From: Takakia lepidozioides
Lineage: Eukaryota > Plantae > Bryophyta
DNA: 64,000 nt
Direction of reading: 5' to 3'
Assembly (NCBI GenBank): GCA_030704615.1
Contig: CM060733.1
Coordinates: 31,000,001-31,064,000, forward strand
Each line of letters begins with the position of its first letter. Within the stretch, counting starts at the first letter, position 1. Of the stretch, positions 27,925 through 62,425 are shown piece by piece. The position numbers and the translations under genes were made by a program. The notes under the pieces were generated by a model. The model searched no databases and was not told where the DNA came from. It saw only the letters and a program-made list of their open reading frames with translations.

Positions 27925-28095
27925 GCTGAAAGGATCGACTCAACGTTGCCATCGGTGTGGCAAACGCGCTGGTGTACCTGCATCATGAGTGCCCGGAGCA
28001 CAGGGTGTACTGTGATCTGAAGCCTTCTCACGTTTTCCTTGACAGAAAGGCCAAGAACCACATCACCGACCTTCGCATCCCACGCTTTGCTACAG
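27925..28095 (+). pseudogene. Captured receptor-like kinase fragment (subdomains VIa-VII) in the 5' region of copy 1
   Basis: Manual translation DRLNVAIGVANALVYLHHECPEHRVYCDLKPSHVFLD matches the RLK consensus RLxIAxxVAxALxYLHHxC..IVHCDLKPSNILLD. Confidence 0.8.
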
Positions 28096-33510: not shown

Positions 33511-33511
33511 A

Positions 33512-33873: not shown

Positions 33874-34272
33874 GGTTTCACAACCAGCCATGCCATTTTA
33901 TGGCGAACCACCACGAAGACCCTCGATTCCCGGTGGTGAGTCGCGGTGAGTCTTGGCCCGCTGACCACGGCCCCTATGGACCGTGATGAGTCCCAAGATT
34001 CCCCACGACTCCCACCACGAGGTTTCCGCCCCCATGGTGAGTCATATGCCACCCCCACTAAGTCCCACTAAGCTACCACCACCCCTTGTGGAGCCACCCC
34101 CACCGCAACCCGGTGTGCGGGGTTCCACCTAGTGAGCGCCTCCGCTTCCCTGAGTGCCTTGGGCACTCAAGGGTGCCTCAGCCCCCCATACCTATCGCTG
34201 CCGCTGCCCCCACCACAGGGGCAGCCCCTCATGTGTCCCGACCCCCTGCCCTCAAAGTAAAGGGCCGCGACA
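33874..34272 (-). repeat. Truncated 5' LTR of the chromovirus
   Basis: Matches 28843-29241; the remaining ~330 bp of LTR, the PBS and the gag 5' part are missing. Confidence 0.88.
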
Positions 34273-38202: not shown

Positions 38203-39258
38203 AACAACCGTGCATGCATTGACTGCCGTCTTGCTTTCTCTCTAGGCATTTGGGGGTCTGTGATCTGCTACACGTAAGTGTCTTTGAAGGCGATGATCAA
38301 AGGATCCGGTCACTTGCAGTTGCCGTCTCAAGGGCAGCATTGCAAGAATCACAATTAAGTAAGAAAGATGGTGGAAGAAGCTGCAAACTGCAAATGAGTG
38401 AAGTGGCAGGGCGATGCTCCATTCTTAACATGCTCCCCTTCCCGCCATGGTGATAGAGCCACACAAATGGACTCCCTTCCCGCCACGGTGCAATTTCAAG
38501 GCAACGGAACAGGATTGTTCGCCGAAACGTGATTTGGAGATCGCGGCCAAATCCGTGATGGAATTCGACCTTCCAATACATGATTTCCTCAATCCGTCTC
38601 GCTCTTCCGCTGAGGGTGGCATTGGGCGAACTACCCCCTGCTACAAACTTTTGATCGTAATGTGATTTTGAGAGACGAATCGCTGTAGCCGGAAATTGTG
38701 CAGACGATGACCGCCGATGAGTGGAGTTCACTCATTATGGCCTAAGACAAGTGGCGCAGGTTCTGGCCTTGTAGTTGGGTTGTTCACACTTCAATGCACA
38801 CATTTCATACACATTCAACCATATGCCCAAGATCACGACGTCCTGAATCGTGAAAATTGAAATTCCACGTACGTCCTCCGATTCGTCACACACACAAAAA
38901 CTGTAGAGACAGGTGGTTTTCCAAGATGTCGTTGTTTGAGTCGATTTTGGTCATTTCTCTCAGTGTCTTGTTGAAAAGATTCTAGTTATGATGGGAAGCA
39001 TCTTGATGGCTTTTAAATGGTTTGCTGTTGAGTGTAACTTTCCATCATGTTCTGGAATCTACCAGTTGGTATAAAATGTCAATTGTCTTCTCTGCCAAAG
39101 GATGTGCGGCTGAACCTTTCAAATTGAGATTGCAGGAGGAGGGAATTGACGGTAGTGAAATGGGAGTGGCAGAGCCAAATTGAGGAGTCTCTGCAAAGGA
39201 GAATCCGGCCCCCTGCAACGGCGTGCACAAACTGCATTGAAGAGGCTCCCCAACAAAA

Positions 39259-42200
39259 ATGAGTTCCCCTCGCCCATGCGGAGGACTTCCAATTAATCAC
39301 CCCTGTAGACAGAACACCCGAGATGACAGGTTGTGGGAAAGAGAAGTGGCACGTGCCCGAGCCCTTGGGCTTTCAAGGATGCCATGCCCATGTGAACGTT
39401 GTTTGGGCACTACAAGTAGATTTGAGGACAGTGTGCGCACACATCTCTTTCACCACAAAAGACATGAAGCATTTCGGGTGTGGATTGGAGATGGACCTGC
39501 AGACGAAGACGATGAGGAGTGGGCACAATTGGACAATGCACACCCCCGGGGGAGCCATACAGATAGGCCAGACAAGGACTATGTCATGGGCGCATGACAT
39601 GAACCAGGCATGGACGGAGGGGTGGAGATTACTCGAATGTAGCAGGAAGCATTCCACATCATGGACGATGCTGAAGAGGGGGACGGCGCTGTGACAACTG
39701 GGGATGGTGATGATGCAGGAAATGAAAGCATTCACGTGGGGGAAGGCGTGGAAGGAGGTGGAGATAGAGATGAGAATTCAGCACACATGACACTAGAAGA
39801 AGCATGTCTGCCAGTGTACGAGGGATGCAAATCCACAAAGCTTGCTGCCACCATGCTGTTGATGAACTTGTGCACAACCCACGGTGTCTCAGACCATTTT
39901 GTGGACGAGTTGTTCTCTTTGCTTCAGCTGAACTTGCTTCCTCAACCAAATGAAATGCCAAAAAGCTGTCACATGGCCAACAAAATGATTGGGAAGCTCG
40001 GCCTCAACTACGTGAAAATACATGCATGTCCAAAAAGACATGTACTTTTCAGAAGAGAGTACAAAGACGCTATGGAGTGCCCCAAATGCGGTGCAGCCCG
40101 ATACCATGATGTGGGCAGGTTACAACAGCCAGCCAAGGTGTTGAGGCACTTTCCCCTTATCCCCCGTCTATTACAATGTACAAATGCAAGACCATTAGTG
40201 AGCTCATGACTTGGCATTCCAGGAATGCCTCAAATGATGGTTGGTAAGGCATGTCCCAGATTCCCTTGCGTGGAAGCATATAGATGCAACTTGGCCCGAT
40301 TTCGCCGAGGACCCACGCAATGTGCGATTGGCTGTATCTACGGAAAGAGTAAACCCATACGGATCAAAGAGCTGCACATGGTCCACATGGCCCATGCAGT
40401 TGGTGGCATACAACCTGCCACCATGGTTGACAACAAAGAAATTCTTTGTCATGTTGTCTCTTTGATTCCAGGCAAGGAGTCCGCGACAAATGCAAACATA
40501 GATGTGTATTTGCAACCATTGATTGAAGAGCTACAGGAACTATGGATTGGAGTTGAAGCTTACGACATTTTGAAACAGTAGGGCAACGGAGTTTCACCCT
40601 CCGTGCCATACTCATGTGGTCAATCCACGATTTCCCGCATATGGCCTTGTTGCGGGTTGCAAGACGAAGGGCTACAAAGGGTGCCCCATTTGTGGGCCCT
40701 ATGTGGTTTCACGGCACTCAAAGCCATTGGGGAAGACAATATACATGGGGCATCGACGTTACCTTGCAAGAAACCACCCCTACCGACGAGCAGGAAGGCA
40801 CTTCAATGGATGTGTTGAAAAGAGAATGGCACCAAATGCTGTGACACCGGAGGAGACATTGCAATTTGCAAAGGAGAAAGAGGCGTTCATGGAGATTGGA
40901 GGGAGAGAAGGAAGTAGTGCGGATCCAGCCATGGAGCACGGGGTGAAGCGCCGGACAATCCTTTGGGATTTGCCATACTGGAAGGTGCATGAATCCCCCG
41001 CCCCCCCCCCCCCCCCCATTCACTCACTTTCTTCACATTGTGCTTCCTGGAATTACCTTTACTGTCAGGAGTCCTTCCACCAACTCCTAAGTCAATGTAA
41101 CTACTATGCAGTAGATGTTGAGGTCGTACACCTCACTGTGGAGAGGATTGTGCAGTTGTTGAAAGCAGAATGTAGTAACATGGACAACTTCTGCCACATA
41201 TTCTACTATTTTTGCCCATAGAACTTGGTCTCATGGGAGGACATCTGGCATTTCAGAACCTCTTGCAGCGGTACCTCCTAGACCCCATGCATTGTGAGAA
41301 GAACTTCTGCGAGAACATTCTGAAGACGATCTTGGGGAGAAGGATACGATAAACGTACGAAATGACATGGAGATTGAAGGGATACGGTCACATCTGTGGC
41401 TAAGGCCTGATCCAAATAGACCTCGCAAAGTGCTCATGCCAGCAGCATTATACGTCCTGACCAAATCAGAGCAAGAGCATTTTTTGAAGACATTGGGAGC
41501 CATGAAAGTGCCAACCGGATTCTCGGGTGCTTTCCAAAAGCATGCCATAAACAAGAAATGGTCGGGGATGAAGTCACATGATCTACACGTGATGATGCAG
41601 CAGATTTTGCCAGTGTGCATTCGGGGTACGATGGCGCCGAGTCCTCGAACAGCCATAATGCGTGTAAGTCGAGTGTTTAGGAAGATTTGTGCGAAGGTGT
41701 GGGATCCGAGGGACATTACATCGTTGCATGAGGATGTGGCTATGACCCTATGTTTGCTGGAGAAAGAATTCCCTCCATCATTCTTTGACGTCATGACGCA
41801 CTTGCTAGTGCATCTTGTAGAGGAGCTGCATGTGTGTGGGCCCGTAACCAGCCGTTGGATGTACCCCATGGAGAGGTACATGAAGGATCTGAAGGGGTAT
41901 GTACGCAACATGGCACGGCCAAAGGGGATTATGGCGGAGGGCTACATCCGCGACGAAGCCCTGGGCTTCATGACAGAGTATATGTCTTCATTTGATGCAA
42001 CACAACGACGGGAGTGGGACAAGAACGAGGAAGAAGGAGTTGTAGGCGAGGTCCTAGAAGGTGGTGGAACAAAGCGTGCCATGAGCCCGCGCCTTCGGGA
42101 TGTGGCACATGATTATGTGCTGAACAACACAACAACCATGACACCATGGAGACAGTGGGTGTAAACTTACATCCCTCCTGTGCTATTCTTAATGGTCTTT

Positions 42201-43277: not shown

Positions 43278-45180
43278 ATTGCAGATATGGGCAGTGAAGG
43301 GGAAGATTCTTTGGATATAGATAGTGAGCCCAACTGAATCTCAGCGTCCATTAAGCTGGTAGCTCGTAGACGAGAGCTGTGCTAAGGACTCTTACTGTCC
43401 TTAGAACCCATTTTGTACAGTCCTGCAAGCGCGCAAGGGTGAGACAATTAATAGTATCGATAATGTCCCGGAATGTGGTCCGTACTGTCTTGTGAACAAA
43501 CCTATATTTACAGTATGATTGTAGTTCAGAACCAAAGGGCATATCCTTCAGCCTTGACGTCTTTGCGATCTTCTGCTGTGACGCCTTCTTCATAACTTGA
43601 GAAATGGAAAAGCAGCTACACCTCAAATTATTGCAAGGCCACTCAATGGCACTAAGAACGCTTCGAGTATGCTGTCAGAAAACTAGACGGGCAAAAACCC
43701 AATTCAGCAGCCTCACCTTGCGTGGATACTTGGGAATTGATACCAGAAGGGCATGCCCGTATGCGCGCTCGATCGTGCCTCCATCCAGCACATTCTGTAA
43801 ATGTTGAATGACCAAGACCCCAATGTTACACCCTTCTGAGAAGCCACTACACGCGCTCACAGTATACGAAGGCCTTGCCGTGTCAGGATTCGCATTCCCA
43901 TGTCCTGCCATGTCCGACAAAGCACTTGCATCCCTGTCTCTGCCAGGTGGAGGCAGCACGTATTAAAATATCTATTCCCCCAAGGCCACATTTGATTTAC
44001 CTCTTTTTGTGAAAGCCACGTCAGCAAATGTGCTGCCGAGTCATGGGTGCAATGAATGCGCAGTGGTTCATGGAGTCGTTGAGTCGACTACATATTCACT
44101 TTAATGAATAAATATCTTTATTCCATTAATCGAATTAGAAAAGGAAATTTGTAGTCGCATGTGCAGTAATTACAACCACTTGTAATTTTGGCTTTTTTCA
44201 AATTTTATGTATTTACGCAATTCGTAAAATAGCCCGGAATTCTGCTACGACTCCGGAGTCGTTGACACTTCTGTCCGCCGTCTGAAATGCCCCCGTGGGC
44301 CCACATTGTCTGTTTTGACTCTCCAGTAGTCCAGTTTACTACCAAGTGGTTCCCGGAGTGGTCGCGGACATGCAGTCGATTCGGAAAAGACACGAATGCT
44401 TCTAGTGACCTCCTACACCTTACCATCATGCAGAGCGAGGCACTTTGAGAGAAGTCTGGCAGTTGATAGCATAGATCAGGATTAGATCTTGTTTGGTCGG
44501 GCCTCTATTCTTCCCCTCCCTCTTTGTACTATTTTCATTACTTTGTACTTGTAGTTGCCAAAGCCTCTCTTGGTGGAGGCCAGTCAGTCCGGGGTTTTGG
44601 GCTGGGATATTCTGCAGGATCAGCACTGCAGATGGATTTGGTGTGGGGGTGGTTGATGTTTTGATTTCTTGTGTTTGGATCCCCCCAAACACCTGCATGC
44701 TTGAATGTGCGCCATGTTGGTTTTGTGTGGGTGCTTGCTTTCATAGGGATTAGGCCGGATTTGATCACCGGGCAATCCTAGAGTATGCTGTCGGTGGTGA
44801 GGCTAGAGTGATGACCAGCAAGACCACCAGTGTTTCTTCTATGGTGAGATTGGGTTGATGACCAGCCAACCATATAAGTACTTGCGGTGGATGCAGGTGC
44901 AGGTGCCCTGAGCCACTGGGATATGACCCTTAAATTGCAACAGGTGCCCATCCATGTCACTATTAGAATTAGTAATAGAGCCTTATAGTGTCACGTAGGG
45001 GAGGTGCACATTGTGAGTGTCATTACGGAGTTACCCAAGGGTTCTGAGGGGAGTACAGCTACAGGCAGTAACAATGAGAGTGGGTTCACAAGACGAGGGA
45101 TTTGGTTCAGACCACCTTCACCTCCACCCTCAACTACTGTAGAGTCTGACACAGACCCGAAGGCTTCATCAACAGGTGTG

Positions 45181-45775
45181 AACTGGATTGCCTGAGCTTC
45201 AGTAACCCCTTGGGTCACACTTATCAAGCGCCTCATACGAGTGTAAGCCTCTTGCAGGCTCTCACTGGATTTGCGCTGGAAGTCTTGCAAACTTCGCAGC
45301 TTCTCTGTCCGTACGCCTTGGTAGTTCCTCCGCAACTCGTGGAAGAACTCCACCACCGGGCTGAATCTAGGCACGTGTGTTGTAGTCGTGGCAGGAGGAA
45401 TAGTAGCACCTTCTGCAGAAGTACTGGCACTACTTGTTCCACTACTAGTGCTGGCAGTGGGAGGTATTGGTGCTGATGTCGCTACTGGTCACGTCGTGCC
45501 TCGAGTAATGGAGACGTAGTCAGGTGACCAATACATCCTCCACTCTTTAATCTCCGCTTCATGTCCTCACCTGAACTCGAGGTAATCGTCCATAGGCGGG
45601 CCTTCCAAATGCTGGAACAATCCCTTCCACGCCATGAATGGGGTGAACAGCTGTGGATTGCGCATCTGCTGCAAATCACATCAGCTGTCGAACTCCTGGA
45701 TAAAGTCATCCAGCTCGATTGTGCCCACAGCTCCAGAGTACCTGCGAGGCCCCTTGGTAGCTCCATACATCTCCT
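45181..45775 (-). pseudogene. Inverted gag segment of copy 1 (continues at 57720-57750)
   Basis: Reverse complement of copy 2 ~49830-50440 (RRNYQGVRTEKLRSLQDFQRK..AYTRMRRL). Confidence 0.92.
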
Positions 45776-46130
45776 TGTCAAGTTAAATAAGCACAGTGTG
45801 AAACTAGCTAGAATAAAGCTAGTTATTTGTATTTAACACTTGGATTTAGGTCAAGTGTTAAATCAGGTGTCAAGTTTAGTTTGACACCTGACCCGTCTTA
45901 TCTTCACGAGAGCGGCAGTCGCGCAGCTCATCTTTCTCGAGTTGAGCCTGCGCGACCGAGCTCCTTCATGCGTTTAGATTTGAGTGTGCTTATGATGGGA
46001 GTGTAGGTTGTTGTGGGGTGGAGTCCCCATAGCTTGGGGTGCCCCTGGCTCGACTTCTGTTTTAAAGAGTGATAGCGATGGATTCATGTTGTTTCTGGTG
46101 TGAGCAGTGTGTTTTCTAGTTTTCTTATCA
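45776..46130 (+). repeat. 5' terminal repeat A1 of copy 2
   Basis: 45776-46128 equals 57282-57634 except for one C/T; ends TTATCA. Confidence 0.95.
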
Positions 46131-46144
46131 CTCGAGAAAGATGA
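46130..46144 (+). promoter_or_regulatory. Putative self-priming PBS
   Basis: ACTCGAGAAAGATGA is the exact reverse complement of 45928-45942 inside A1. No tRNA-type TGG.. PBS is present. Confidence 0.8.
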
Positions 46145-46369
46145 CGCCGTATCTAGTTTTCTAGTGCTAAGCTAGATGTGACGTTTTTGTTTTTAAGCAC
46201 TATTATAATATAGCTTGGTCACGAGAGCCGGTAGTTAGACTGGCTATGTGTGCCTAGTGGAGCATAACAGGAAGGCAAGAACCACTCAAAGCGTCGTTGC
46301 AGCAGTTCTAACCTCCTGGGAATGTAGCGGGTCCAAGCTTTTTACAACAAGCAGGTGGGCTGGACCTGC

Positions 46370-47085
46370 TGTTTGGGTCTAAGAAGACTGGGTCGGCGGA
46401 TAGGCCTCTGTGGTTCCCAGGTGCAAAGGCCCCGTCTTGGGCTGGATGGATCTTTGGTTGGTGACTATGGTTTCGATCCACTGTCCCTGGGAAAATCTCC
46501 AGAGTATCTGCAGTTCGAGCTGGATTCACTGAACCAGAACTTGGCTAAGAACCCTGCTGGAGTCGTGATCGGAACCCGTCTTGATAAGAAGAAGGATATC
46601 AACCCCACTCCCTTCCGACCGTACAGTGAGGTGTTCGGCCTCCAAAGGTTCAAGGAATGCGAACTGATCCACGGTAAATGGGCAATGCTTGCCATTGTTG
46701 AGAGTTGTCTGTCGAGACGTTCACTGGCGTGACATGGCAAGATGCTGTAAAGGTGGAACTTGCTGATGGTCCCTCTTACTTCGGTCTCTCGTTGCCGTTC
46801 AGCATCTCTGCTCTTGTCTGGATTGAGACTCTTGTGGTAGGATACATTGAGTTCCAAAGGAATGCCGAGTTAGACCCAGAGAGGCGTCTGTATCCTGGTG
46901 GCAAGTACTTCGATCCCCTCGGACTGGCAGCTGACCCCGAGAAGAAAGAGGTTCTAAAACTCGCCGAAATTAAGCATGCAAGGCTGGCCATGGTTGCTGC
47001 TTTGGGTTTTGCTGTGCAAGCTGCTGCTACAGGCAAGGGTCCCTGGACAACTGGGCCACGCACCTGAGCGAATCCACTCTCACTT
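46370..47085 (+). pseudogene. LHCB4: Captured Lhcb4 (CP29) chlorophyll a/b-binding protein sequence, frameshifted
   Basis: [25 protein letters not shown], the CP29-specific [79 protein letters not shown]. An A23 run follows at 47116-47138. Confidence 0.93.
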
Positions 47086-47169
47086 GCCTGCTGAAAGCAC
47101 CCATCAGCTTTCTTGAAAAAAAAAAAAAAAAAAAAAAACTGTTGGCCTTGTCAGTCTTGTTCACCAAAA

Positions 47170-47502
47170 TCAGTGGGACGTGTAGGCATTACCAAGGCAC
47201 CAGTGAAGGTTGTTGACTTTACCAAGCGAAGTGTGGTAGAGGGCGAGAATGTTGTCATTTGCCACAACGTTATGTTTCCTTCGGCTCTCTACTACTGCCA
47301 TCATGTCACAGGAACCAAGGTGGTGCAGGCGTCGTTGGCAGCTGTAGATGGATCAATCATTCACGCAGTCGCCATATGTCATTTGGATACCAGTCTCTGG
47401 GCATCAGAGCATCCTGCCTTCACGGCTCTCAACATTATTCAGGGAGCCGAAGCATGCCATTGGTCAACTCAGAATGATCTCATCTGGGTGCCCTCCCACT
47501 GA
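47170..47502 (+). pseudogene. Captured BURP-domain C-terminal fragment
   Basis: Four CH motifs: VICHNVMFPSALYYCH..AVAICHLDTSLWASEHPAF..EACHW..DLIWVP. Confidence 0.9.
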
Positions 47503-48344
47503 TGAGGTCCGACCTCTGCTCTCGTTGCTACCGTTTCCAAGTAGTTCTGGGGATCGTAAGGTCAGCTCAGTGGAAAGTACTCTTGCCTATTTCCCTGCCA
47601 ATCGTCCTTTAACCTGCAACGGGCCTCTTGAATAGGCACATATATCAGCCATCAGCAACAATTTTGCATGCATACCTACATAGGTTTTCGGTGTTGATGC
47701 CCAGACACAAGGAATTTCAATTTGCTGTAAAGTGTTAGGCTGGTAGCAGCAGTCTTCTGCATGACTTCTCAAAATCTACCGCTGATGTAGAGCTGAAAGG
47801 CATGTGGAAATGCTTTGAGACTATGTCGGAGATCATCAATCTCGGATGCGCTTAAGCCCAGGCGCTCGAGCTCTGCCGTTGTCCCCAATTCGGTGATGCA
47901 GGGCAATCCGTTATCGCACGCCTGCTGCTCCAGGGTGTGATACCCCATCCATAACTGAGGTCGAGTCTTGGAGTTGAGAGTTCTTGGTGCCTGGAGAAGC
48001 CTGGAGGGGAACGGCCTCGGGAACCCATAGATAACCTGGGAACAGGTTGTAATGGCGAGAACGTTTTGGTGTTAAAAAAAAAAAAAAACCTTTTGATCTA
48101 ATTTAAATGATTTAGAGCCTAACTGTTCATAACTTTGTCAGATGGACTCCGTTTGACTCAGTTTTTGGGAGGATAGCTGCAGAAAGGGGAAATCTACCTA
48201 CCTAGATTCTGTTTCTGTTTTTGGGACTCTGCTAAAAATCTATGGAATTTTTAGAGTGTGAGTGTGCCATAAAAGATCCACAATCCTGTCTCTAGAACCT
48301 GTGCTGGTCTATATGAGAGACAAATCTGTGGATGTACTCCTTGC

Positions 48345-49095
48345 ATGGCTGGGGGAAATGAGGACGTAATTGAAGGGCAGGTCTCTTCTCTTAGCCATGC
48401 ACACAAGGGGACAGGATTTATGTTTCCCAAGGAATTCAGACTGATTTGAGTGGAGAACAGTTGGACGAGTTGATTGCATACTGGGAGTCAGGCATTAGCA
48501 GTAGACAACAGACTGCTGTAGTTGGCATTGAGGGCCTCAATATCGCCTTGGACAGTCAGAACTCTGTTGGAGCCAGCAGTTCTGCAGCTGTAGGTGAAAT
48601 ACCAAAGTGGGTGAAAGCTAGGCTTGGAACACAGCCAAAGACAGCCCCGGGGACCAAGGTGTTCAGCCACAAGGCCGTGGTGTACTAGAGCAGAGGAGCA
48701 GGAGGAGCTACACAAGTTTGTGCAATCAGACATGTTGCAGCCGGATACGCTCTGCAAGGGCAACCACGAGCGGGGGTTCATCAGCAATGACATGTTTGTT
48801 GTGCGTGAAGGAGATGCAGTCATTCGCAATGAGGACACCCCGCAACCGTCTCAAAGCTTTCGAGTTGAGAGACTATCAGACCCTACCTTTGTTTTCTTTA
48901 GTATTCAGTGAGCGGGAGATAGGGGAGTATTGCTTTGTCTCTACCTGGCAGAAAGAGGAGGAGGGTTGGTTAGAGCGAGCTACTGTAGCTTGGGACAAGG
49001 TTAGTGGCAGGTTTCTGGACATAGATATACCTCCTACACCTTACCATCATGCAGAGCGAGGCACTTTGAGAGAAGTCTGGCAGTTGATAGCATAG
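48345..49095 (+). pseudogene. ORF0 upstream of gag, unknown function (homolog in copy 1 at ~28465-28515, 34278-34909, 44411-44475)
   Basis: Both copies encode MAG.NEDVIEGQVSSLS..SGEQLDELIAYWESG..RNRLKAFELRD..WLERATVAWDKVSG..LREVWQLIA*; disruptions differ between the copies. Confidence 0.6.
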
Positions 49096-49619
49096 ATCAG
49101 GATTAGATCTTGCTTGGTCGGGCTTCTATTCTTCCCCTCCATCTCTGTACTATTTTTATTACCTTGTACTTGTAGTTGCCAAAGCCTCTCTTGGTGGAGG
49201 TCAGTCAGTCCGGGGTTTTGGGCTGGGCTATTCTGCAGGATCAGCATTGCAGCTGGATTTTGGTGTGGGGGTGTTGATGTTTTGATTTCTTGTGTTTGGA
49301 TCCCCCCAACACCTGCATGCTTGACTGTGCGCCATGTTGGTTTTGTGTGGGCGCTTGCTTTCATAGGGATTAGGCCGGATTTGATCACCGGTCAATCCTA
49401 GAGTATGCTGTCGGTGGTGAGGCTGGAGTGATGACCAGCAAGACCACCAGTGTTTCTTCTATGGTGAGGCTGGGTTGATGACCAGCCAACCATAGGAGTT
49501 CTTGCGGTGGATGCAGGTGCAGTGCCCTGAGCCATTGGGATATGACCCTTAAACTGCAACAGGTGCCCACCCGTGTCACTATTAGATTAGTACTAGAGCC
49601 TTATAGTGTCACGTGGAGG

Positions 49620-52550
49620 AGGTGCACATTGTGAGTGTCATTACGGAGTTACCCAAGGGTTTTGAGGGAGTACGGCTACAGGCAGTAACAGTGAGAGTGG
49701 GTTCACAAGACGAGGTATTCGGTTCACCCCACCTTCACCGCCACCCTCAATTACTATAGAGTCAGACACAGACTCGGAGGCTTCATCAAGGTGTGCACTT
49801 TCATTCACCATTGTTGTGGGACGACATGGAGGAGATGTATGGAGCTACCAAGGGGCCTCGTAGGTACTCTGGAGCTGTGGGCACAATCGAGTTGGATGAC
49901 TTTATCCAGGAGTTCGACAGCTGGTGTGATTTGCAGCAGATGCGCAATCCACAGCTATTCACCCCATTCATGGCGTGGAAGGGACTGTTCCAGCATTTGG
50001 AAGGCCCGCCTATGGACGATTACCACGAGTTCAGGCGAGGACATGAAGCAGAGATTGAGGAGTGGAGGATGTATTGGTCACCTGACTACGTCTCCATTAC
50101 TCGAGGCACGACGCGACCAGTAGCTGCATCAGTACCAGTAGCTCCCACTGCCAGCACTAGTAGTGGAGCAAGTAGTGCTGGTACTTCTGCAGGTGGTACC
50201 AGTTCAAAAGTGCTACTACTCCTCCTGCCACGACTACAACACATGTGCCTAGATTCAACCCGGTGGTGGAGTTCTTCCAGGAGTTGCGGAGGAACTACCA
50301 AGGTGTACGGACAGAGAAGCTGCGAAGTTTGCAAGACTTCCAGCGCAAACCCAGTGAGAGCCTGCGAGAGGCGTACACTCGTATGAGGCGCTTGATAAGT
50401 GTGACCCAAGGGGTTACTGAAGCTCAGGCAATCCAGTTTTGGTATGGAATTCTGGACAAGGAGCTCAAGAGAAGGGTGCGAGATGCAACCTTGTTACAAG
50501 CAGCCCAACCCACATTAGCAGATGTGTTTCTGCTGGCTGAGCGGATTGAGCTCAACATGGTGGAGGAGCGAGTTGTTACAATTGGATTTGGCAAGGACAT
50601 GCCTGCACGGGGCACAGCTGTCAGCCCACAGGCACAAGGGACTGCCCAACAGCGTGGTCAGGGGGGCAAGGTGCCCAGCCCAAGTTCCATGGAGCTTACA
50701 GGGGACCTCAGGTGCAGAGGCCCGTGCATCTTTTGCAGGCCAACAGCAACCAGGGGTGATATGTTGGACATGTGGAGGACCCCATGTCAAGAGAGATTGC
50801 CCAGAGAGTGGCAGAAGGCCGGCACAAGCACAGCCTGCACAGTTGCAGTGTGGGCATTGTGGCAAGTATGGGCATGGAGATGCCCAGTGTTATGACTTGC
50901 ATCCTGAGTTGCGCCCAGGCCAGTTCCAAGGGAACAATGGTGGCCGGGGGCGAGGTGGACCAGCCCAGAGAGGACGAGGTGGTCGGGCACGAGGTGCAGG
51001 CCAAGGGCAAGCTCAACATGGCCAAGGACGCGGAGGTCAGGGTGTTGATCAAGGCATGGCCAACCGGCTTCAGCAGCTAGAGCAGAGGCTCGCTGCCATG
51101 GCTATAGCTCAGGCGGTACCGGCTCCCAGGCGGGATGGTCCACCTCCTGCTCCCAAGGGAGGAGATATGGGAGGCATGGGATTTATGTGCGGAGCAGCAC
51201 TACCACTAGAGCAGGTGGAGTCTGCTGCAGCCGTGACTCGAGGAGCAGCACGAGTTCCTGAGCCACGAGGTGCAGAGGTGGAATTGGATCCACAGCGTGG
51301 GGAGGCAAGCCGTCAGGCGAGGCTTCCTCAGTCATTCACATTGGCGGAGACTGTGTCGACGCCATCCATGGCACCTAGTTCTCGCCCGACTGTTACCGAG
51401 GCGGAGGTTACTATGCCATTGGGGAGAGCTACACGTGCAGCATGACTCCTGCTGCCAAGGCTAGTGCGGCCGGTGTGTTATTGGGGGCAGCCACCTCTGT
51501 GTGTCAGGCCCCACTGTTCTCGGCAACAATGATTGCGACGCCGGGGGTGAGACCAGCTGCAGTGTTCAGACTAGCAGCAACACTCTGTGAGAGTGGGGAG
51601 GTCACTTCATCTTCTGCGGAGTTAGTGGAAGGTGTAGTGGCAGAGGGATCCTCGGATTTGAGGGTCAAGACTGCCACGGCTGCGCCATGGCAAGCTGCAG
51701 CTGCCAGGTTGACGGAGCTGCCAGCTAGGCCAGCCTTTGAGCGCGCCACGGTGACACCTGGAGTTGTCTTGTTAGACAACCAGGGAGGCATTTTCACTCT
51801 GAGTGGACCGGCAGGCAAGAAGTACCGGCCACTGCGGGTCTTGTTGGACTCGGGAGCTCAGCCACTGATGTTGGGCAGAGCTGCTATTGCAGGTTTGGGC
51901 CTCATGGAGGCGGATATGGAGCCTTGTCCTTTCCAGATACAGACATCTCTGGGAGGATCAGAGCAGGCTCGGGCATGACACGGCATCAGTTGGCCATTAG
52001 ACTGCAGCCGGATCATCCTAGAGATGGCTCAGTGATGCGAGCCAAGGCCATTGTGACAGACGCGGTCTCTTACGATGTCCTCGTTGGTGGGGCAGTGTTA
52101 TACCCCATGGGCTTCACCCTGGACTTTTGGGAGGAGTCAGCATCCTACAGGCCTGGATGGCAGTCAGGCGATGGTCGCCGTGCACAGCTCCCTGTGACAT
52201 TCATTGGGGGTATAGCGGCTGCCCAGCGGGGCAAGATGCCAACACTAGCCGCCTTTACAGCTGCAGTTAGTTGGCCTGGAGAGTTGCTGGAAGGCAATGC
52301 CCATGCAGAGGATGTGCCACCTCCAGCAGAGCAGGATGACATGCATGGTATGGCGGAGTTGCCTGCCATGGTTGCTCACACTCCATTGTGGGGTACGAGC
52401 AAGGATTTGCAGCAGGTTGCTGATCGACGGGTGCAACAAGCCTGGGTAGAGGCTTTTGTACCGTCAGAAGAGGAGGAGAGTGCGGGTATTGCACCAGGAC
52501 CACCTCAGTTGTCACCATTGGATACCACACCTATTGTGTGGCAGTATCCG
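49620..52550 (+). pseudogene. gag (two zinc knuckles) and aspartic protease of copy 2
   Basis: Capsid-like ELRRNY..FQRKPSESLREAYTRMRRL, CWTCGGPHVKRDC, CGHCGKYGHGDAQC, protease VLLDSGAQ (~51840) and YDVLVG. The start is approximate; several 1-nt frameshifts. Confidence 0.88.
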
Positions 52551-52559
52551 GATGAAGGC

Positions 52560-53525
52560 ATTTGCCTTCTGGACTTGTTTGGCGGGATCAGCACTGGATT
52601 GGCTGCTGTGCTACAGGCAGGTGTGCGGGTAAGGTGTTACCTGTATGTGGAGAGGGATGAGACTGCACGACGCGTCTCACTGCGCCATGTTGCTCAGTTG
52701 GTACAACAGTACCCTGCTTTGTTGCCAGTGTCTGCAGTTCGTGGATACCAACAAGCCTTGCCAGCAGACATTTCGTTGTTGGGGGCGCCGGATTTGGAGC
52801 AGGTTGGCTCCATTGATCTGGTAGTGGCAGGTTGGCCCTGCCAAGGGCATTCATCAGCCGGGCATGGCAATGGATTGCGAGACTCGAGGACGGGTCTGTT
52901 TTGGGAGATGGTGCGGATTTTGCGCCACTTGCAGCTTCATCAAGCTGTATCGCCAGCATACATCTTGGAGAATGTGCCACTGATGGGCGATTCTCGGGCC
53001 AGGGTGATGGCCAGTGTGCATCAAGTCCGGTCGTGGCTTGGGTCAGCAGTGTTGCTGGATGCAGCTGCAGTGGGGTCACGGGCTCATCGTCCACGGCTTT
53101 GGTGGACTAACTTGATGCCACCTGCACTACTCAAGCGTGCATTTGATGGGGTGCAGCGGCCAGCACACCTCACCGTGGATGGCATTTTGGACACAGGGAG
53201 GCAGTCTCAACGTGTGAGACACGATGACCGTTCGCCTTTGGCAGTGGTCAACAGGGTGGGTCAACCACGAGCAGCATTACCTACACTGCTCAGCTTCCCA
53301 GGATCCCATGCTTTTCGGGATGGTGGACCTGGCCTCCTGTGGGATGCTCAGTTGCAGCAGTTAGTGGAGCCTAATGCCGACGAGCGAGAGCGGGCTATGG
53401 GGTTTTCCACTGGGACCACGGCGGTGCCTTCTCTTTCTGAGGCATCACGTCGTCAGGTGTTGGGGCAAGCAATGGATCTCAATTGCTTGACCTGGATTAT
53501 CAGCTTGGCTATGGCTGAGCAACGT
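52560..53525 (+). CDS. C5 cytosine DNA methyltransferase domain (DNMT3-like) inside the retrotransposon polyprotein
   Basis: Uninterrupted frame with motif I LLDLFGGISTG, II YVERD, IV DLVVAGWPCQ, GLFWEMVRIL, VI YILENV, VIII SRAHRPRLWWTNL, IX ERERAMGF and X RRQVLGQAMD. Confidence 0.95.
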
Positions 53526-53804
53526 AGAGTGCGGAGTGCACTCCCTTCATGGTCTCTCTGCCTACCGAGACGGTACAGGCAGCGAGTGGGGGGAGCCGGT
53601 GAGGACCACGGGGTGTAGACATCCATGGCACACGTGGGAGGTGCTCGAGGTTCAGAGGGAGTTGGCAGCCAAGGCAGCTGTGATGGATGAGGTTGGGGAT
53701 TCTTCTCGGGATGAGGAGGTTCTCAATGATGAGATGATGGGGCAGGATGAGGCCTTGTCATGACTGAGCAGGAAGGGAGTACTGCTCAAGAGGTTGCAGC
53801 ATAG

Positions 53805-56800
53805 CAACCACGGGACGCGTCCTCTACCTCTAAGCCCACTGGACTTAAGGTTGCAGTTACGGAGGACAATTGGGAGCCTGACATTGGACCCATTGTCACC
53901 GGAGGAGAGAGACGACGTATACGGCGGTTCCTGAGGGCTTACAGAATTGTTTTGCCTTCAGTTTGAAGGACTTGGGAGCACTGAAGGGTCAAGAGATTGA
54001 ATTGAGTTGGCCACTGACACGCCAATCTTTCGGAGACCCTATAGATACAGTGACATGGAGAGGTCCTTGATTCAGATGAGAACTCAGGATCTCTGGGAGG
54101 CAGGTTTGGTGGAGCTCTCTGGTGGAGAGTATGCTTCAGCCACAGTGATGCCAGCCAAGAAGGATGTCTATGGCAATTGGACGGAGAGACGTATGTGCGG
54201 TGATTACCGGCCTGTAAATCGTCAGACCAAGTCCGATAGGTATGCCATGCCGACACCAGAGGAGATCTTTGATGCCATTGGGCATTCCAAGGTCTTTAGC
54301 ACGTTGGATTTACGATCCGGATATCACCAGTTGCCGATCAAGGAGGCGGATAAGCAAAAGACGGCATTCTGGGGGATCAATGAGCACGGGAAGGATTGCC
54401 TATACCAGTGGCGGTTCTTACCATTTGGGCTTAAAAACGCTCCCGCTGAGTTTCAAAGAGTCATGGACAGGATTCTAGCAGGGGTGGAGTTTGCTCGGTG
54501 CTACATAGATGACATCATCATCTTTAGTGCTACGGTGGAGGAGCATGAGAGACACCTTCAGGGGGTATTTGAGCGCTTGAGGGCGCACGGATTGAAGTTA
54601 CATCCGGGAAAGTGCAAGTTTTTCCACAACCAGATTGAGTATCTGGGTCACATGATATATCCTGGAGGATTGGGGGTACAGCAGACTAAGGTAGAGTCCA
54701 TTGCACAGGTTCCACGCCCCACGGATGTGAGCCGAGTTCGAGCTTTCATGGGGTTAGCAAACTATTACAGACGGTTTGTTAAGGGATTTAGTGCCATTGC
54801 AAAGGCTCTAACCAAGCTGACCAAGGTGGACCAGGAGTGGCAGTGGGAAGATGAGCAAGAACAAGCTTTTCAAGAGCTCAAGGCGAGGTTGACCTCGGCG
54901 CCCATCTTGAGACGACCTATCAGGGGGCGTCCTTTTCAGCTGCATACAGATTGGAGCATGCTGGGGCTTGGAGCGGTGCTCACACAGGTGGATGATGAGG
55001 GAAGAGAGTTCGTAGTGGCTTATGCTAGCCGCTCGAACAATGCTGCAGAGTCTAAGTATAGCTCATATGAGGGAGAATGCTTAGCTGCAGTGTGGGCCGT
55101 GGCACACTTCAGGTGCTATCTATACGGCAATCTCTTCACCCTTGTCACGGATCACCAACCACTCAAGTGGTTGATGGAGTCAGACAAGCTTACGGGGAAG
55201 CTTGCACGGTGGGCACTCATCCTTCAAGAGTATGACTTTCAGGTGGTGCATCGACCGGGTTTGGTCAATCGCAATGCAGATGGGTTGAGTCGCAATCCAT
55301 GCACGAGCCAACAGGATGACACTGGAGCTCGGTGGCATGGTGAGACGGACGAGGAGATGGTGCCCGGATGGCATGCATCTGCATTTCTGTGTATCTTGGC
55401 AGCGGAAGGCCAGGTTGGACCTGCAACAGGGATGACTGTAGATCAAGTGTCTGAGGACCCTGAGGCCAGCAATGAGCAAGGTGGCGCCAAAGATATACAT
55501 GAGGATTCAGTTGTGTTGGACTACCTCCGCACTGGAGACACGGCAGCCACTGTGACTGCCAAGGAGAGGGATCGGATCCTACAACGAGCCAAGAGGTTCA
55601 AGTGGGAGGGACACACCTGCTCCGAGTGTGGGAGGATGGTCGAGTGAGGATTGTGCCTCACCCAACACAGCGGGCACGGTTAGTGCGCCATGCCCATGAG
55701 GAGTTGGGGCATTTTGGGGTGCGACGCACTCATAGTCTACTGCAGGGGCAGTATTGGTGGCGTGGTATGCACACAGAGGTGCAACAATTTGTGGCTAGGT
55801 GCATGGTGTGTGACAGGGTGCGTGCTTCATTCAACGCCCCTACTCCACAATTGCACCATCTTCCGATCATGGGATTGGGCTACAGGTGGAGTCTTGACTT
55901 CGCAGGGCCATTGCCACTGACCATGCGCCACAACAAGTACGTGTTGGTGATGGTGGAGCACTTCTCCAAGTGGATTGAATTGGTTCCATTGCCTGATAAG
56001 GCTAGTGAGGGAGCTGCGTATGCATTCTTGGATTGTGTGCTTAGCCGATTCGGTGCTCCAGCTGAGGTACTCACGGACCAAGGGAGAGAGTTTTTGGGGG
56101 AGTTTCAGGCGTTGTGTGACAAGGCCTTGATAGACCACCGCACCACTTCTCGGGATCATCCTGAGGCCGATGGCTTGGCAGAAAGAGTTGTTCAGACAGT
56201 AAAGAGGGGTTTGCGCAAGTATGGCTTGCAGAAGGGACACCTAGGAGATTGGGACCTTCAGTTACCCTGGTTAGCCATGGGCTACAGGTTCAGCAAGCAA
56301 GCATCACTTGCCTCCTTCTCACCATACTTTCTTCTCTTTGGCCGAGAGCCGGATTTGCCTACATCCATTCGCAGAGAAGCTGCTACAGTTCTTAACCTTG
56401 ACGATCCGGACGTGTGGGCACGTGCATGTGAGCAGCGTGCAGAGTTGTTCAAGAGAGTCATGCCCATGGCTTTCGAGAACCTTGCCATTGCACAACACCG
56501 TGATACGTTGAGGTATGCTACCATACGTGGTGGGGGCTATCGTCCTGGGGTTTGGAGATTCAACCCTGGTGACTATGTCTATCTGCAGCAAACTGCTCCT
56601 ACGACCCTGGATGTGACTGCAGGACGTGTTATTTTGAGGATTCGAGAGGTCTTGCCCTCAGGCGTCTTGGTCTTGGAGGGTCGGGATGGCATAACTTGGA
56701 AGGACCATGTGCGTAATTGTGCGCCATGTCACCTTCCAAATGTCGATGGCAGGATTGACCCAAACCTGGCAGTGGTATCTGCAGGTTTGAGGTGCATGTT

Positions 56801-56935
56801 GTGTGGGTCTGCTAAAGGGGCAGCCACCATGCTGGTGTGTGATCGATGCTCTAGAGGTTGGCATATGGGATGCTTGACTCCACTCTTGAGATGGTTCCGG
56901 ATGGGGATTGGTTATGTCCACATTGCATTGGATAG
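53805..56935 (+). pseudogene. RT-RNase H-integrase-PHD of copy 2
   Basis: [81 protein letters not shown], then C4HC3 PHD. Frameshifts at ~53945-54000, ~55610 and ~56885. Confidence 0.95.
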
Positions 56936-57179
56936 TGGGAGTGGATACAACCATGGAAGGCTAACAAGAAACGCAAGGCCCAGCTACAGGAGACCTTGAA
57001 TACACGAAGTCCTGGCTCAAGTTCACAGATTGCAAGACGACGACTAACGATGGGGCTACTCTTGTACCCGGCCTCTTGGTCTATAGAGTTTGAGTACGAT
57101 AGGGACAGTGATAGAGGACTTAGTACGGCTATGGCTATTACGTCTTGTAGCTATCTGGAGGTAGAAGGACCTATCCACC

Positions 57180-57194
57180 AGCTAGGGGGGCAAT
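57180..57194 (+). promoter_or_regulatory. Polypurine tract
   Basis: AGCTAGGGGGGCAAT immediately before TGTGGT of repeat X1. Confidence 0.75.
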
Positions 57195-57719
57195 TGTGGT
57201 AGACTACTTTATTGTGCATATATGTGTGGTGTGGTTTGGACAGCGATGTAGTTGTGTAGCGATACGTATGCGCACGACAGCTGTCAAGTTAAATAAGCAC
57301 AGTGTGAAACTAGCTAGAATAAAGCTAGTTATTTGTATTTAACACTTGGATTTAGGTCAAGTGTTAAATCAGGTGTCAAGTTTAGTTTGACACCTGACCC
57401 GTCTTATCTTCACGAGAGCGGCAGTCGCGCAGCTCATCTTTCTCGAGTTGAGCTTGCGCGACCGAGCTCCTTCATGCGTTTAGATTTGAGTGTGCTTATG
57501 ATGGGAGTGTAGGTTGTTGTGGGGTGGAGTCCCCATAGCTTGGGGTGCCCCTGGCTCGACTTCTGTTTTAAAGAGTGATAGCGATGGATTCATGTTGTTT
57601 CTGGTGTGAGCAGTGTGTTTTCTAGTTTTCTTATTGTGGTAGACTACTTTATTGTGCATATATGTGTGGTGTGGTTTGGACAGCGATGTAGTTGTGTTGC
57701 AATACGTATGCGCACAACA
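57195..57719 (+). repeat. 3' terminal structure X1 (57195-57279) - GC - A2 (57282-57634) - X2 (57635-57719)
   Basis: X1 and X2 are 85-bp direct repeats (3 mismatches); A2 equals A1; the X1/A2 junction reads CAGCTG. Confidence 0.93.
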
Positions 57720-57751
57720 TCCTCCATGTCGTCCCACAATAATGGCGAAGA

Positions 57752-60700
57752 AGACAGTTGTAGTGTAGGCATTGTGGCAAGTATGGGCATGGAGATGCCC
57801 AGTGTTATGACTTGCACCCTGAGTTGCGGCAAGGCCAGTTCCAAGGGAACAATGGTGGCCGAGGGCGAGGTAGAGCACCTCAAAGAGGATGAGGTGGTCA
57901 GGCACAAGGTGTAGGACGAGGGCAAGCACAGTATGGCCAAGGACGTGGAGGTTAGGGCGTTGACCAAGGCATGGCTAACCGGCTTCAGCAACTAGAGCAA
58001 ATGATTGCTGCCATGGCCACAGCTCAGGTGGTACCAGCTCCAAGACCTGAGGGTCCACCTCATGTTCCTCCTCAGCAGCGTCATCCTGACGGAGGAGACA
58101 TGGGAGGCATGGGATTTATATGTGGGGCAGCACTACCACTAGTGCAGGTGGAGTCTGCTGCAGCCGTCACTCGAGGAGCAACACGAGTTCATGAGCCACG
58201 AGGTGCAGAGGTGGAGTTAGATTCACAGCATGGGGAGGCAAGCTGTCAGACTAGGTTGCCTCAATCATTCATCTTGGGGGAGACAGTGTCGACGACATCC
58301 ATGGCACCTAGTTTTCGCCCGACAGATACAGAGGCCGTTATTGTGCCATTGGGGAGAGCTACACGTGCAGCACTGACACATGTTGCCAAGGCTAGTGCAG
58401 CCAGTGTGTTGTTGGGGGCAGCCACCTCTCTATGTCAAGCCCCACTGTTCTCGACAACCATGATCGTGACGCCGGGGGTAAGACCAGCTGCAGTGTTCAG
58501 ACTAGCAGCAACACTCTGCGAGAGTGGGGAGGTCACTTCATCTTCTGGAGAGTTGGTGGAAGGTGTAGTGGTAGAGGAATCCTCGGATTTGAGGGTCAAG
58601 ACTGCCATGGCTGCGCCATGGCAAGCTGAGCTGCCAGGTTGACGGAGCTGCCAGCTAGGCCAGCCTTTGAGCGCGCCATGGTGACACCTGGAGTTGTTTT
58701 GTTAGACAACCAGGATGTCATTTTCTCTTTGAGTGGACCCGCAGGCAAGAGGTACCGGCCACTGCGGGTCTTGTTGGACTCGGGAGCTAAGCCACTGATG
58801 TTGGACAGAGCTGCTATTGCAGGTTTGGGCCTCATGGAGGCGGATATGGAGCCTCGTCCTTTCCAGATACAGACATCTCTGGGAGGATCAGAGTAGGCTC
58901 GGGGCATGACACAGCGTGAGTTGGTTATTAGACTACAGCCGGATCATCCTATAGATGGCTCAGTGATGCGAGCCAAGGCCATCGTGACAGATGCAATATC
59001 TTACGATGTCCTCGTTGGTGGGGCAGTGTTATATCCCATGGGCTTCACCCTGGATTTTTAGGAGGAGTCAGCATCCTACAGGCATGGATGGCAGTCAGGG
59101 GATGGTTGTCGTGTACAGCTCCCTATGACATTCATTGGGGATGCTGCTGCTGCCCAACGGGGCAAGATGCCAACACTAGCCGCCTTTACAGCTACAGTTA
59201 GTTGGCCTGGAGAGTTGCTGGAGGGCAATGCCCATGCAGAGGATGTGCCACCTCCAGCAGAGCAGGATGACATGCATGGTACGGCGGAGTTGTCTGCCAT
59301 GGTTGCTCACACTCCATTGTGGGGTATGAGCAAGAATTTGCAGCAGGCTGCTGATAGACGGGTGCAACAAGCCTGGGTAGAGGCCTTCGTATCGTCAGGA
59401 GAGGAGGAGAATGCAGTGATTGCACCAGGACCACCTCAGTTGTCGCCATTGGACACCACACCTCTTGCGTAGCAGTGCCCACATGAAGGCATATGCCTTC
59501 TGGACTTGTTTGGCGGGATCAGCACTGGATTGGCTGCAGTGCTGTAGGCAAGTGTACGAGTTCGACGTTATCTGTATGTGGAGAGGGATGAGACTGCACG
59601 ACGCGTCTCACTGCGCCATGTTGCTCAGTTGGTGCAGCAGTACCTGATTTGTTGCTTGTGTCTGCAGTTCGTGGATACCAACAAGCATTGCCAGCAGACA
59701 TCTCTTTGCTGGGGGCGCATGATTTGGAGCGGGTTGACTCTATTCACTTGGTAGTGGCAGGTTGGCCTTGCCAAGGGCATTCATCAGCCGGGCATGACAA
59801 TGGGTTACAAGACTCAAGGTCATGCCTGTTTTGGGAGATGTTGAGGGTCCTACGCTATTTACAGCTTCAGCAGACAGACCCTCCGGCATATATCTTGGAG
59901 AATGTGCCATTGATGGGTGATTCTAGGGCCAAGGTGATGGCCAGTGTGCATCAAGTGCGGTCTTCGCTTGGATTAGCAGTGTTGCTGGACGCAGCTGCAG
60001 TGGGGTCACGGGCTCATCACCCACGACTATGGTGGACCAACTTGATGCCACCTGCACTGCTCAAGTGTGCATTTGATGGGGTGCAGCGGCCACCACAGCT
60101 GACGGTGGATAGCATTTTGGACATAGGGAGACAGTCTCAGCGTGTGAGACACGATGACCGGTCACCTTTGGCAGTGGTCAATAAGGTGGGTCACCCACGA
60201 GCCACATTGCCTACACTGCTCAGCTTTCCAGGATCCCATGCTTTTCGGGATGGTGGACCTGGCCTCTTGTGGGATAGCCAGTTGCAGCAATTAGTAGAGT
60301 CCAATGCTGACGAGGGCGAGCGGGCGATGGGTTTTACCACTGGTACCACGGCGGTGCCATCTCTTTTTGAGGCATCGCATCGTCAGGTGTTGGGGCAAGC
60401 AATGGATCTCAATTGCTTGACCTGGATTATTAGCTTGGCTATGGCTGAGCAGCGCAGAGTACGGAGTACACTTCCATTGATGGTCTCCCTGCCTACCGAG
60501 ACGGTACAGGCAGCGAGTGGGGGCGAACAGGTGAGGACCACGAGGTGCAGGCCGCATCCATGGCACACGTGGGAGGTGCTCGAGGTTCAGAAGGAGTTGG
60601 CAGCCAAGGCGGCGGTGATGGATGAGGTTGGGGATTTTTTTCGGGTTGAGGAGGTCCTCAAGGATGGGATGATGGGCCAGAATGAGACATTGTCACTGAC

Positions 60701-61539
60701 TGAGGAGGCAGTGGTCACCGCTCAAGAGGTTGCAGCATAGCAACCACGGGACGCGTCTTCTACCTCTAAGCCTGCTGGACTCAAGGTTGCAGTCACGGAG
60801 GACAACTGGGAGCCTGATGTTGGACCTATAGTCACCGGAGGAAAAAGACGACGTATACGGCGGTTCTTGAGGGCTTACAGGAACTGCTTTGCCTTCAGTT
60901 TGAAGGACTTAGGAGCACTGAAGGGTCAAGAGATTTGCATTGAATTGGCTACTGACACGCCAATCTTTCGGAGACCCTATAGATACAGTGACATGGAGAG
61001 GTCCTTGATTCAGATAAGAACTCAGGACCTTTGGGAGGCTGGTTTGGTGGAGCTATCTGGGGGAGAGTATGCTTCAGCCACAGTGATGCCAGCCAAGAAG
61101 GATGTCTATGGCAATTGGACGGAGAGACGTATGTGCGGTGATTACCGACCTGTAAATTGTCAGACCAAGTCCGATAGGTATGCCATGCCAACACCAAAGG
61201 AGATCTTTGATGCCATTGGGCATGCCAAGGTCTTTAGCACTTTGGATTTACGATCCAGATATCACCAGTTGCCGATCAAGGAGGCGGATAAGCAGAAGAC
61301 GACATTCTGGGGGATCAATGAGCACGGGAAGGATTGCCTATACCAGTGGCGGTTCTTACCATTTGGGCTTAAAAATGCTCCCGCTGAGTTTCAAAGAGTC
61401 ATGGACAGGATTCTAGCAGGGGTGGAGGTTGCTCGGTGCTACATAGATGACATCATCATCTTTAGTGCTACGGTGGAGGAGCATGAGAGACACCTTCAGG
61501 GGGTATTTGAGCGCTTGAGGGCGCACGGATTGAAGTTAC
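57752..61539 (+). pseudogene. Copy 1 gag end, protease, C5-MTase (~59490-60460) and RT N-terminal part, with nonsense mutations
   Basis: Highly similar to 50840-54600: LLDSGA, GWPCQ, ILENV, RAHHPRLWWTNL, YIDDII. Premature TAGs at ~58894, ~59059, ~59470 and ~59545. Confidence 0.93.
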
Positions 61540-62161
61540 TGTCGCGCGGCTTTTACTCACCCATCCCTTCGCTATCCGAGGCGGAAACTCCAAGATAGAA
61601 GAGTTGGAAATCTCTAAGTACTCAGCCCGCGCAGAACAATCAGTCATGACCTACAGCTAGTGTATCATGGGGGTGTTTCCTATTTGTTTCCTTTTCCGCA
61701 TTCATCTTAGCTACCTTACCATTGATAATTAAGTATCAGTTTGCTTCATCAATTTATCGGTTTCCTTAACTCCTCCATTCAATCCACAGCTTCACTCAGA
61801 TCTCTCTACACAGTGTGATTGTATCGTATAAATATCAGATTATGATTTATCAGGTATCAGGCCGAAGCCATTATGTCTCTATTCTTCTTTCCTATATCAC
61901 TATAGCTTTGCATATAACAAGCATCTAATAATCCTCTTTTCTCCTTCATCGTGCTCTCCGATCTCCGCTCCCGCCTGACTCCGAAGTCCTCCCCCGAATA
62001 ATGATCCCTTTCTTCATTCCCCGTTTTCCCTTTATCCTTCTGTCCGCGTTCTAACCGTTTCCCTCTCTAACCGTCGTATGTGAACTAACATGTTCCCTCA
62101 CAGGTGTTGTTCCCCACAGTCGTTCCCTGTCCTACTCTTCGTTCCCTATTATCGTGACAGC

Positions 62162-62425
62162 TGTGTCAAGCGGTGACTGGCTGTGTTTGGCTGTGTGGGC
62201 TGTGTCTGCTGTGACGACTGTGACGGGCTGTGTGGGCTGTGTGGGCTGTGACGACTGTGACGGGCTGTGTGGGCTGTGACGGCTGTGTGGACTGTGACGG
62301 GCTGTGTGGGCTGTGACGGGCTGTGTGGGCTGTGACGGCTGTGTGGGCTGTGTGGGCTGTGACGACTGTGATGACTGTGACGGGCTGTGTGGGCTGTGAC
62401 GGCTGTGACTGCTGTGTGGGCTATG
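62162..62425. repeat. Short-period tandem repeat (GGCTGTGTG / GCTGTGACG units)
   Basis: Directly visible. Confidence 0.9.

Follow-up and report, generated by a model that had tools for sequence, protein, structure and literature searches.

Two copies of a Ty3/gypsy-type retrotransposon in the moss Takakia lepidozioides carry the same stop codon in frame between a DNA methyltransferase (MTase) and the reverse transcriptase (RT). Does this stop mark the death of the element, or is it part of how the element is expressed? We analysed the whole 64,000-nt stretch of contig CM060733.1 that holds both copies (hereafter the window) and compared the junction with those of related elements. Judged from sequence, the TAG is conserved, lies in frame within a context of tobamovirus type and is quite probably a programmed leaky stop.

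Pfam matches and translation of the window ORFs gave the domain order Gag, protease (PR), MTase, TAG, RT, RNase H (RH), integrase (IN) and PHD for copy 1 (45776-57719), which is a Ty3/gypsy layout (Table 1). The Gag-PR-RT-RH-IN order of Ty3/gypsy was also found with Pfam in three relatives (L057, L111 and L060). Copy 1 begins with TGTCA at 45776, ends with CAACA at 57719 and is flanked on either side by TCCT, giving it the TG...CA ends and short target-site duplication of Ty3/gypsy elements. Its terminal repeats are split in a DIRS-like manner (A1, ORFs, B, A2, B), and the full pattern recurred in L070 and L077 when 29 loci, a good number of which are truncated, were examined. The MTase is intronless and Dnmt3-like and has catalytic motifs (FGGI, GWPCQG, ENV, RAHR and GQAMD), as in Gypsy-Dnmt3 elements. 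The top 19 PDB rows for it were DNMT3A or DNMT3B, with the PC, ENV and RxR motifs aligned. The Gag region of copy 1 matched Marchantia protein P0071 at 47-78% (tblastn), and the nearest named proteins are from Sphagnum, Calypogeia, Riccia and Marchantia.

Table 1 Features of the two element copies in the window, with the basis of each call.
Feature	Position	Strand	Basis or remark
Target-site duplication TCCT, 4 bp, left	45772..45775	+	right copy 57720-57723
Terminal repeat A1, starts TG	45776..46128	+	99.7% identical to A2
Gag with zinc-knuckle-like Cys/His stretch, copy 1, indel-broken	49826..51445	+	Retrotrans_gag E 7e-4
Aspartic protease, LLDSGAQ, Asp codon 51847	51760..52140	+	translation; Asp_protease_2 matches in relatives
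Dnmt3-like C5 cytosine methyltransferase	52560..53480	+	PF00145 E 5e-13; top PDB match DNMT3A E 5e-10
In-frame TAG then CAA CCA CGG (UAG-CAR-YYA-xxG), copy 1	53802..53813	+	translation and junction comparison
ORF2, indel-broken in assembly, terminal TAG 56933	53805..56935	+	Pfam, translation
Candidate 5' arm of 3' stem (predicted)	53811..53834	+	folding
Candidate 3' arm of 3' stem, within TGGERRR codons (predicted)	53895..53918	+	folding
RT	54187-54657	+	within ORF2, copy 1
RNase H	54928-55233	+	within ORF2, copy 1
Integrase	55662-56162	+	within ORF2, copy 1
PHD	56793-56885	+	within ORF2, copy 1
Split terminal repeats B1 57193-57279, A2 57282-57634, B2 57633-57719, end CA	57193..57719	+	repeat comparison
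Second copy, truncated (mid-Gag to RT), more decayed	57754..61539	+	91% identical to copy 1
In-frame TAG CAA CCA CGG, copy 2	60738..60749	+	joins ORF 59592-60740 to ORF 60741-61598

The 9-mer TAGCAACCA stands at 53802 and again at 60738, in frame between MTase and RT. The initial annotation had read GCA GCA TAG CAA CCA in both copies, and this string is present at 53796-53810 (TAG 53802) and at 60732-60746 (TAG 60738). It had also described the RT frame as open past the stop for 42 codons in its copy 1, which is our copy 2. The frame is indeed open there, for 285 codons rather than 42, and lies directly behind and in the same frame as a 382-codon MTase ORF that stops at the TAG. In copy 1 the frame past the TAG is RT-like for about 47 codons, up to a 1-nt indel near 53944. 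The two copies are 91.2% identical across about 3.76 kb and, as had been noticed for a smaller set of disruptions, they have only the junction stop in common: all 13 indels and every other stop are private to one copy. The remaining breaks of copy 1 are 1-nt indels, the sole in-frame stop within its aligned domains being a TGA between two indels, and those of copy 2 are seven stops in frame within ORF1, plus two 1-nt indels.

The context of the stop is rare in the window. CAR-YYA follows five of the 714 plus-strand TAG triplets, two of which are the junction stops, and in five elements CAR-YYA made up 9 of 3415 in-frame dicodons elsewhere. The bases behind the terminal TAG of ORF2 are TGG GAG. 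A contig of the same organism from another sample, covering 53433-54300, has 16 differences from the window, none of them inside the 9-mer, and no variant fell at 53802-53810 among the variants listed (40 of 117). Same-organism contigs also differ in length at five of the 1-nt indels that alone break copy 1, whose terminal repeats are 99.7% alike. Because of this variation, some of the indels may be artefacts of assembling a young insertion.

Relatives were collected by a metagenome scan with MTase patterns, which is blind to the junction, and the best 80 of 413 loci were taken. RT was reached in 65 of the 80; the 15 loci without RT downstream were dropped, as was L040, where a deletion crosses the junction. 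Together with the two window copies and L111 this left 67 junctions, reduced to 58 distinct ones by removing nine near-duplicates. The set is dominated by family A (44 of 58 junctions), which matches Sphagnum-named proteins. We placed the stop column by alignment for families A, B and D and the window element, and by frame and motif for families C and E.

A stop occupies this column in 57 of the 58 junctions, across six lineages (TAG in 43, TAA in 14, GAA in one), and the five lineages measured are 61-80% identical to one another in RT. Lineage E lacks TAG (TAA, TAA and GAA), and its GAA copy, L079, is decayed. The initial annotation had proposed conservation of the stop and its context across the family as a check, and had named a sense codon in most intact copies as the contrary outcome. 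We found the former, and intact elements keep the stop. L057 has 2418 codons, and its sole internal stop is TAG CAG TTA at codon 1370; L111, also of about 2,400 codons, is likewise intact, with TAG CAA TCA as its sole internal stop, and L060 has the junction stop and one frame break. Gag-PR-MTase forms one ORF ending past the MTase, with the stop downstream of the protease as had been suggested, in L057, L111 and five metagenome proteins. These five (1228-1451 aa) and one Marchantia model comprise Gag, protease and MTase only and end at the matching place. The MTase and RT frames stay in register over linkers of 99, 113, 115, 130, 133 and 136 aa. Among decay stops at the same loci, CAR-YY follows 2 of 69, and in family A the commonest shared decay stop is found in 10 of 44 copies versus all 44 for the junction stop.

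We considered TAA as the mark of a separate active subfamily within family A and rejected this, as G>A at the junction (12 of 44 copies) lies inside the range of 0.07-0.36 seen at 12 other TAG triplets. A search of IMG/VR gave no motif match and no family member, and 30 weak phage methylase matches were set aside. The intact element L111 (L111:1-9285) lies in a contig assigned to a cyanobacterial genome bin, which is probably eukaryotic contamination of that bin. In X2 (runs X2 and X4 on window positions 53400-54300), the summed contig depth was about one million versus about 60 per single contig; depth is not copy number, and the sum hints that the element family is very abundant.

The bases behind the stop are conserved as well. 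The first codon past it is CAA in 51 junctions, CAG in two and another codon in five, and takes both CAR forms while the flanking residues vary. The second codon is CCC in 44, CCA in five, TCA in five, TTA in two, CTA in one and CCT in one. CAR-YY is present in 53 of 58 junctions and full CAR-YYA in 11, the latter in both window copies and in lineages B, C and E and absent from the single-copy lineage D. Outside family A the second codon takes the YYA form. The YYA codons occur in all four forms (CCA, CTA, TCA and TTA), and G is the last base of the third codon in 57 of 58 junctions, though this codon encodes R, M, V, E, Q or P. Because the YYA codons specify different residues (Pro, Leu or Ser) and a G nearly always closes the third codon, our comparison indicates that selection is acting on nucleotides at the junction.

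The type I readthrough consensus is UAG-CAR-YYA (PMC3542737, PMC2194720, PMC2754532), with an in-frame UAG between two coding regions as found here, and xxA-UAG-CAA-UUA-xxG does not vary among 105 tobamovirus sequences (Firth 2011, PMC3159437). The UAG-CAR-YYA context claimed for the window copies is genuine and kept at the nucleotide level. One qualification applies: family A reads CAA CCC ATG and misses the consensus at +6. Only four of eight lineage representatives have the A that the tobamovirus motif places at -1.

With a leaky stop at this position, most ribosomes would end past Gag-protease-MTase, which would be the main product, and a few would read on, adding RT, RNase H, integrase and PHD. 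A near-cognate tRNA would decode the UAG a few percent of the time; the six 3' bases would be the main signal, and a stem from about 11-17 nt downstream may add to readthrough. In stable plants the TMV context gave 6-10% readthrough, with Tyr inserted by tRNA-Tyr (PMC2754532), and removal of the stop from Tj1 abolished transposition (PMC4600332). The protease of the element would free the MTase inside the particle, where it would be as abundant as Gag and could methylate new cDNA. We propose packaging solely because the MTase is fused to Gag.

Other routes to RT were weighed against readthrough. The TAG or a nearby AG could be a splice acceptor, with RT made from spliced RNA in which the stop is missing, as in Ogre, where GAG-PROT is parted from RT-RH-INT by a partly spliced intron (PMC6317226). 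This is unlikely. Although TAG matches YAG and a T run precedes it in family A, conservation sits 3' of the TAG (CAR-YYA-xxG), with no pyrimidine tract and an upstream T content of 0.19-0.37. Five Marchantia, Riccia and Sphagnum gene models (P0037, P0073, P0077, P0078 and P0085) do fuse MTase and RT with the junction residues omitted, but they join at varying places, like automatic predictions, and none restarts at CAA. Splicing would not hold the MTase and RT in register across six linker lengths, and in place of an intron-like spacer, which averages about 274 nt in Ogre (PMC6317226), there is one codon here. The TAA copies are uninformative against an acceptor, because the TAA rate in family A equals background decay.

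ORF2 could also be translated separately, through reinitiation or internal initiation directly behind the stop, which we regard as quite improbable. No Met precedes the RT motifs in the intact L057 and L111 or in the window copies; ORF2 has its first in-frame Met at codon 117 in L057 and L111 and at codon 85 in window copy 2, past the conserved RT start. A start codon does lie close behind the stop in L054, L059 and lineage E (ATG at codon 5) and in family A, where ATG is the third codon, two codons past the stop, in 42 of 44 copies. The family A ATG, however, accords with the xxG rule of every lineage. Free Pol would also be without a Gag tether.

Bypass through RNA editing, an altered genetic code or ribosomal hopping is highly improbable. 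Nothing in our analysis supported any of the three, and to our knowledge there is no nuclear A-to-I mRNA editing in plants. An altered code would not select a stop-specific 3' context, and hopping was excluded for the TMV context (PMC2754532). Least credible is a decay mutation (CAG or TGG to TAG) from a dead ancestor or recurrent at a methylated site: such changes are frequent (in family A the mean for C>T at CHG is 0.24, and six further TAG stops are present in window copy 2), but CAG or TGG occurs at none of the 58 junctions, the stop is common to lineages as diverged as those above, the otherwise intact L057 and L111 already refute this reading, and copy 1 was inserted recently, given its near-identical terminal repeats and its target-site duplication.

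Readthrough at the conserved stop may be aided by RNA structure, which we regard as a lead only. A structure-stimulated (type II/III-like) signal is defined by a conserved stem that begins some 8-12 nt 3' of the stop and shows compensatory changes. Folds of 130 nt from the stop gave z values of 0.0 to -4.5 (nine sequences), and the predicted pairing often joins bases just 3' of the context to TG[GA]E codons about 90 nt downstream. The stem arms were picked after the folds had been viewed, and their registers differ between sequences; under this choice, pairing energies of cognate arms ranged from -14 to -33 kcal/mol and, in 11 of 11 sequences, were better than those of 300-327 of the 327 slid windows. 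Arms of lineage C paired among themselves mostly at -20 kcal/mol or better, versus -7 to -14 kcal/mol with family A or window arms. RNAalifold gave a 7-pair helix with three double changes, which amount to one event between two clades, and column-wise covariation within lineage C showed no double change in 33 pairs. In a control by synonymous recoding, four sequences clearly missed the 5% level; out of 1000 recoding trials per sequence, 683 equalled the native pairing of L059, 128 that of L001, 98 that of L057 and 77 that of window copy 2. In longer context the stem scarcely forms in L054 and L059, and L078 has none.

Phylogenetic analyses were used to place the origin of the stop, with lineage E left out of the trees as too decayed. 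The 11 stop-bearing rows of a 20-row RT tree fall together on one side of a branch with 99/99 support. In a 33-row FastTree (midpoint root), which included 10 of 58 proteins with the MTase after RT, the stop clade has support of 0.997 and is nested among 15 proteins in which the MTase precedes RT in a single ORF; one of these is from Closterium. Because of this nesting, the simplest reading is that the stop was likely gained once, from a single-ORF ancestor. Both searches for relatives scored only about 8000 candidates, so that a stop-free member of the clade is possible.

We examined 125 long proteins (120 listed of 346, and five more from another search), all with RT-RNase H identity to L057 of at most 57%. 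The MTase precedes RT in one ORF in 15 of these and was not detected in 52. In the other 58 (P0090-P0100 and others, several rows being green algal) it lies after RT-RNase H and before integrase. The K. nitens protein P0197 is among the proteins listed and is not among the MTase-before-RT tree rows. The MTase has moved within the polyprotein over time, and the group seems wider than published.

Gypsy-Dnmt3 elements are known from streptophytes (PMC5890265, 10.64898/2026.05.21.726589, PMC12344493, PMC6338049). KnitGypsy-Dnmt3 of Klebsormidium nitens (de Mendoza 2018, PMC5890265) resembles the window element: it is Ty3/gypsy, its Dnmt3-like MTase has no introns and its repeats are split in the DIRS-like order A1, ORFs, B, A2, B. 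There, however, the methyltransferase is described as part of the Pol ORF, which it shares with RT and RNase H, whereas the conserved stop of the window clade puts the MTase on the Gag side, making this clade a variant rather than a plain member of the group. The word "readthrough" is absent from the main text and three supplementary files of PMC5890265. No activity of the Klebsormidium enzyme was seen in yeast, and its authors describe this outcome as inconclusive (PMC5890265).

Tobamo-, beny- and pomoviruses share with the window clade the UAG-CAR-YYA context, the third-codon G and a polymerase behind the stop (PMC3159437, PMC3542737, PMC2754532). Unlike these RNA viruses, the clade consists of nuclear retrotransposons, has no conserved -1 A and includes one CCC family; it also has a candidate 3' stem, whereas tobamoviruses lack extended structure (PMC3159437, PMC3542737, PMC2754532). 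In MuLV, Tca2, Tj1, Tosmo1-3 and Tcry1, one in-frame stop sets the capsid-to-enzyme ratio and a single-ORF ancestor is likely, as here (PMC2194720, PMC4600332, bioRxiv 2022.12.06.519325). Their stop lies between Gag and protease, as UGA-CU or as UAG with a pseudoknot, whereas the protease and a captured enzyme precede it in the window clade (same sources).

SIRE1 of soybean is a plant LTR element with an in-frame stop, as here (PMC2194720). It is a Ty1/copia element with the stop between pol and an env-like gene, so that the accessory protein is the rare product, whereas the accessory MTase here is proposed to be the abundant one. The stop context of SIRE1 is UAG-CARYYA. Alpharetroviruses place their switch past the protease, through a -1 frameshift, and are not known to carry an MTase. 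Ogre (Tat clade) also has its expression switch past the protease, but this is intron-based and without an MTase (PMC6317226). Retrotransposon readthrough and Gypsy-Dnmt3 are thus each known alone; we found no report of a readthrough stop behind an MTase, or of a switch past both protease and MTase, in the literature searched, whose scope excluded most subscription papers, Repbase reports and bioRxiv supplements.

The role of retrotransposon-captured methyltransferases has been termed unclear (PMC5890265). The stop position predicts that the MTase is needed at the level of Gag and not of RT. This prediction speaks for a function inside the particle or for one on DNA that depends on dose, and it is testable in Marchantia or a moss. 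More tentatively, the clade, as one of land plants, may have turned an ancestral single polyprotein into a two-level system by means of a plant-virus readthrough cassette, with particles that would carry hundreds of Dnmt3 molecules methylating cDNA before integration; it would then be the first retroelement to load an epigenetic writer at capsid level. The clade also provides a natural series of type I contexts (four YYA codons and one CCC family) for the study of readthrough in bryophytes, and a dated change from single-ORF to readthrough expression. The stop accounts for gene models that end past the MTase or invent introns at the junction.

The target site of copy 1 is an inverted gag start of its own family, in which it is nested (45181-45775 and 57720-57749). 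More pieces of the family at 26124-28515, 34273-34909 and 44408-45184 make this a nested cluster. A chromodomain Ty3/gypsy element on the minus strand (28840-34273; PR, RT, RH, IN, SH3 and chromo), with LTRs 98% alike, is inserted into the 5' part of a third copy of the family. A host gene for ubiquitin-activating enzyme E1 lies at 8153-14880 on the plus strand (ThiF, FCCH, 4HB and SCCH). CACTA-like transposase pieces (Transposase_21, DUF4218) were found at 40574-42164 (plus strand) and 19536-20087 (minus strand), and within mobile DNA a minus-strand ORF at 37405-38241 has a partial NIF-type phosphatase match (E 2e-7). The window also has a 65-nt tandem array at 22009-22516 and a simple repeat array of GGCTGTGTG/GACTGTGAC at 62179-62425.
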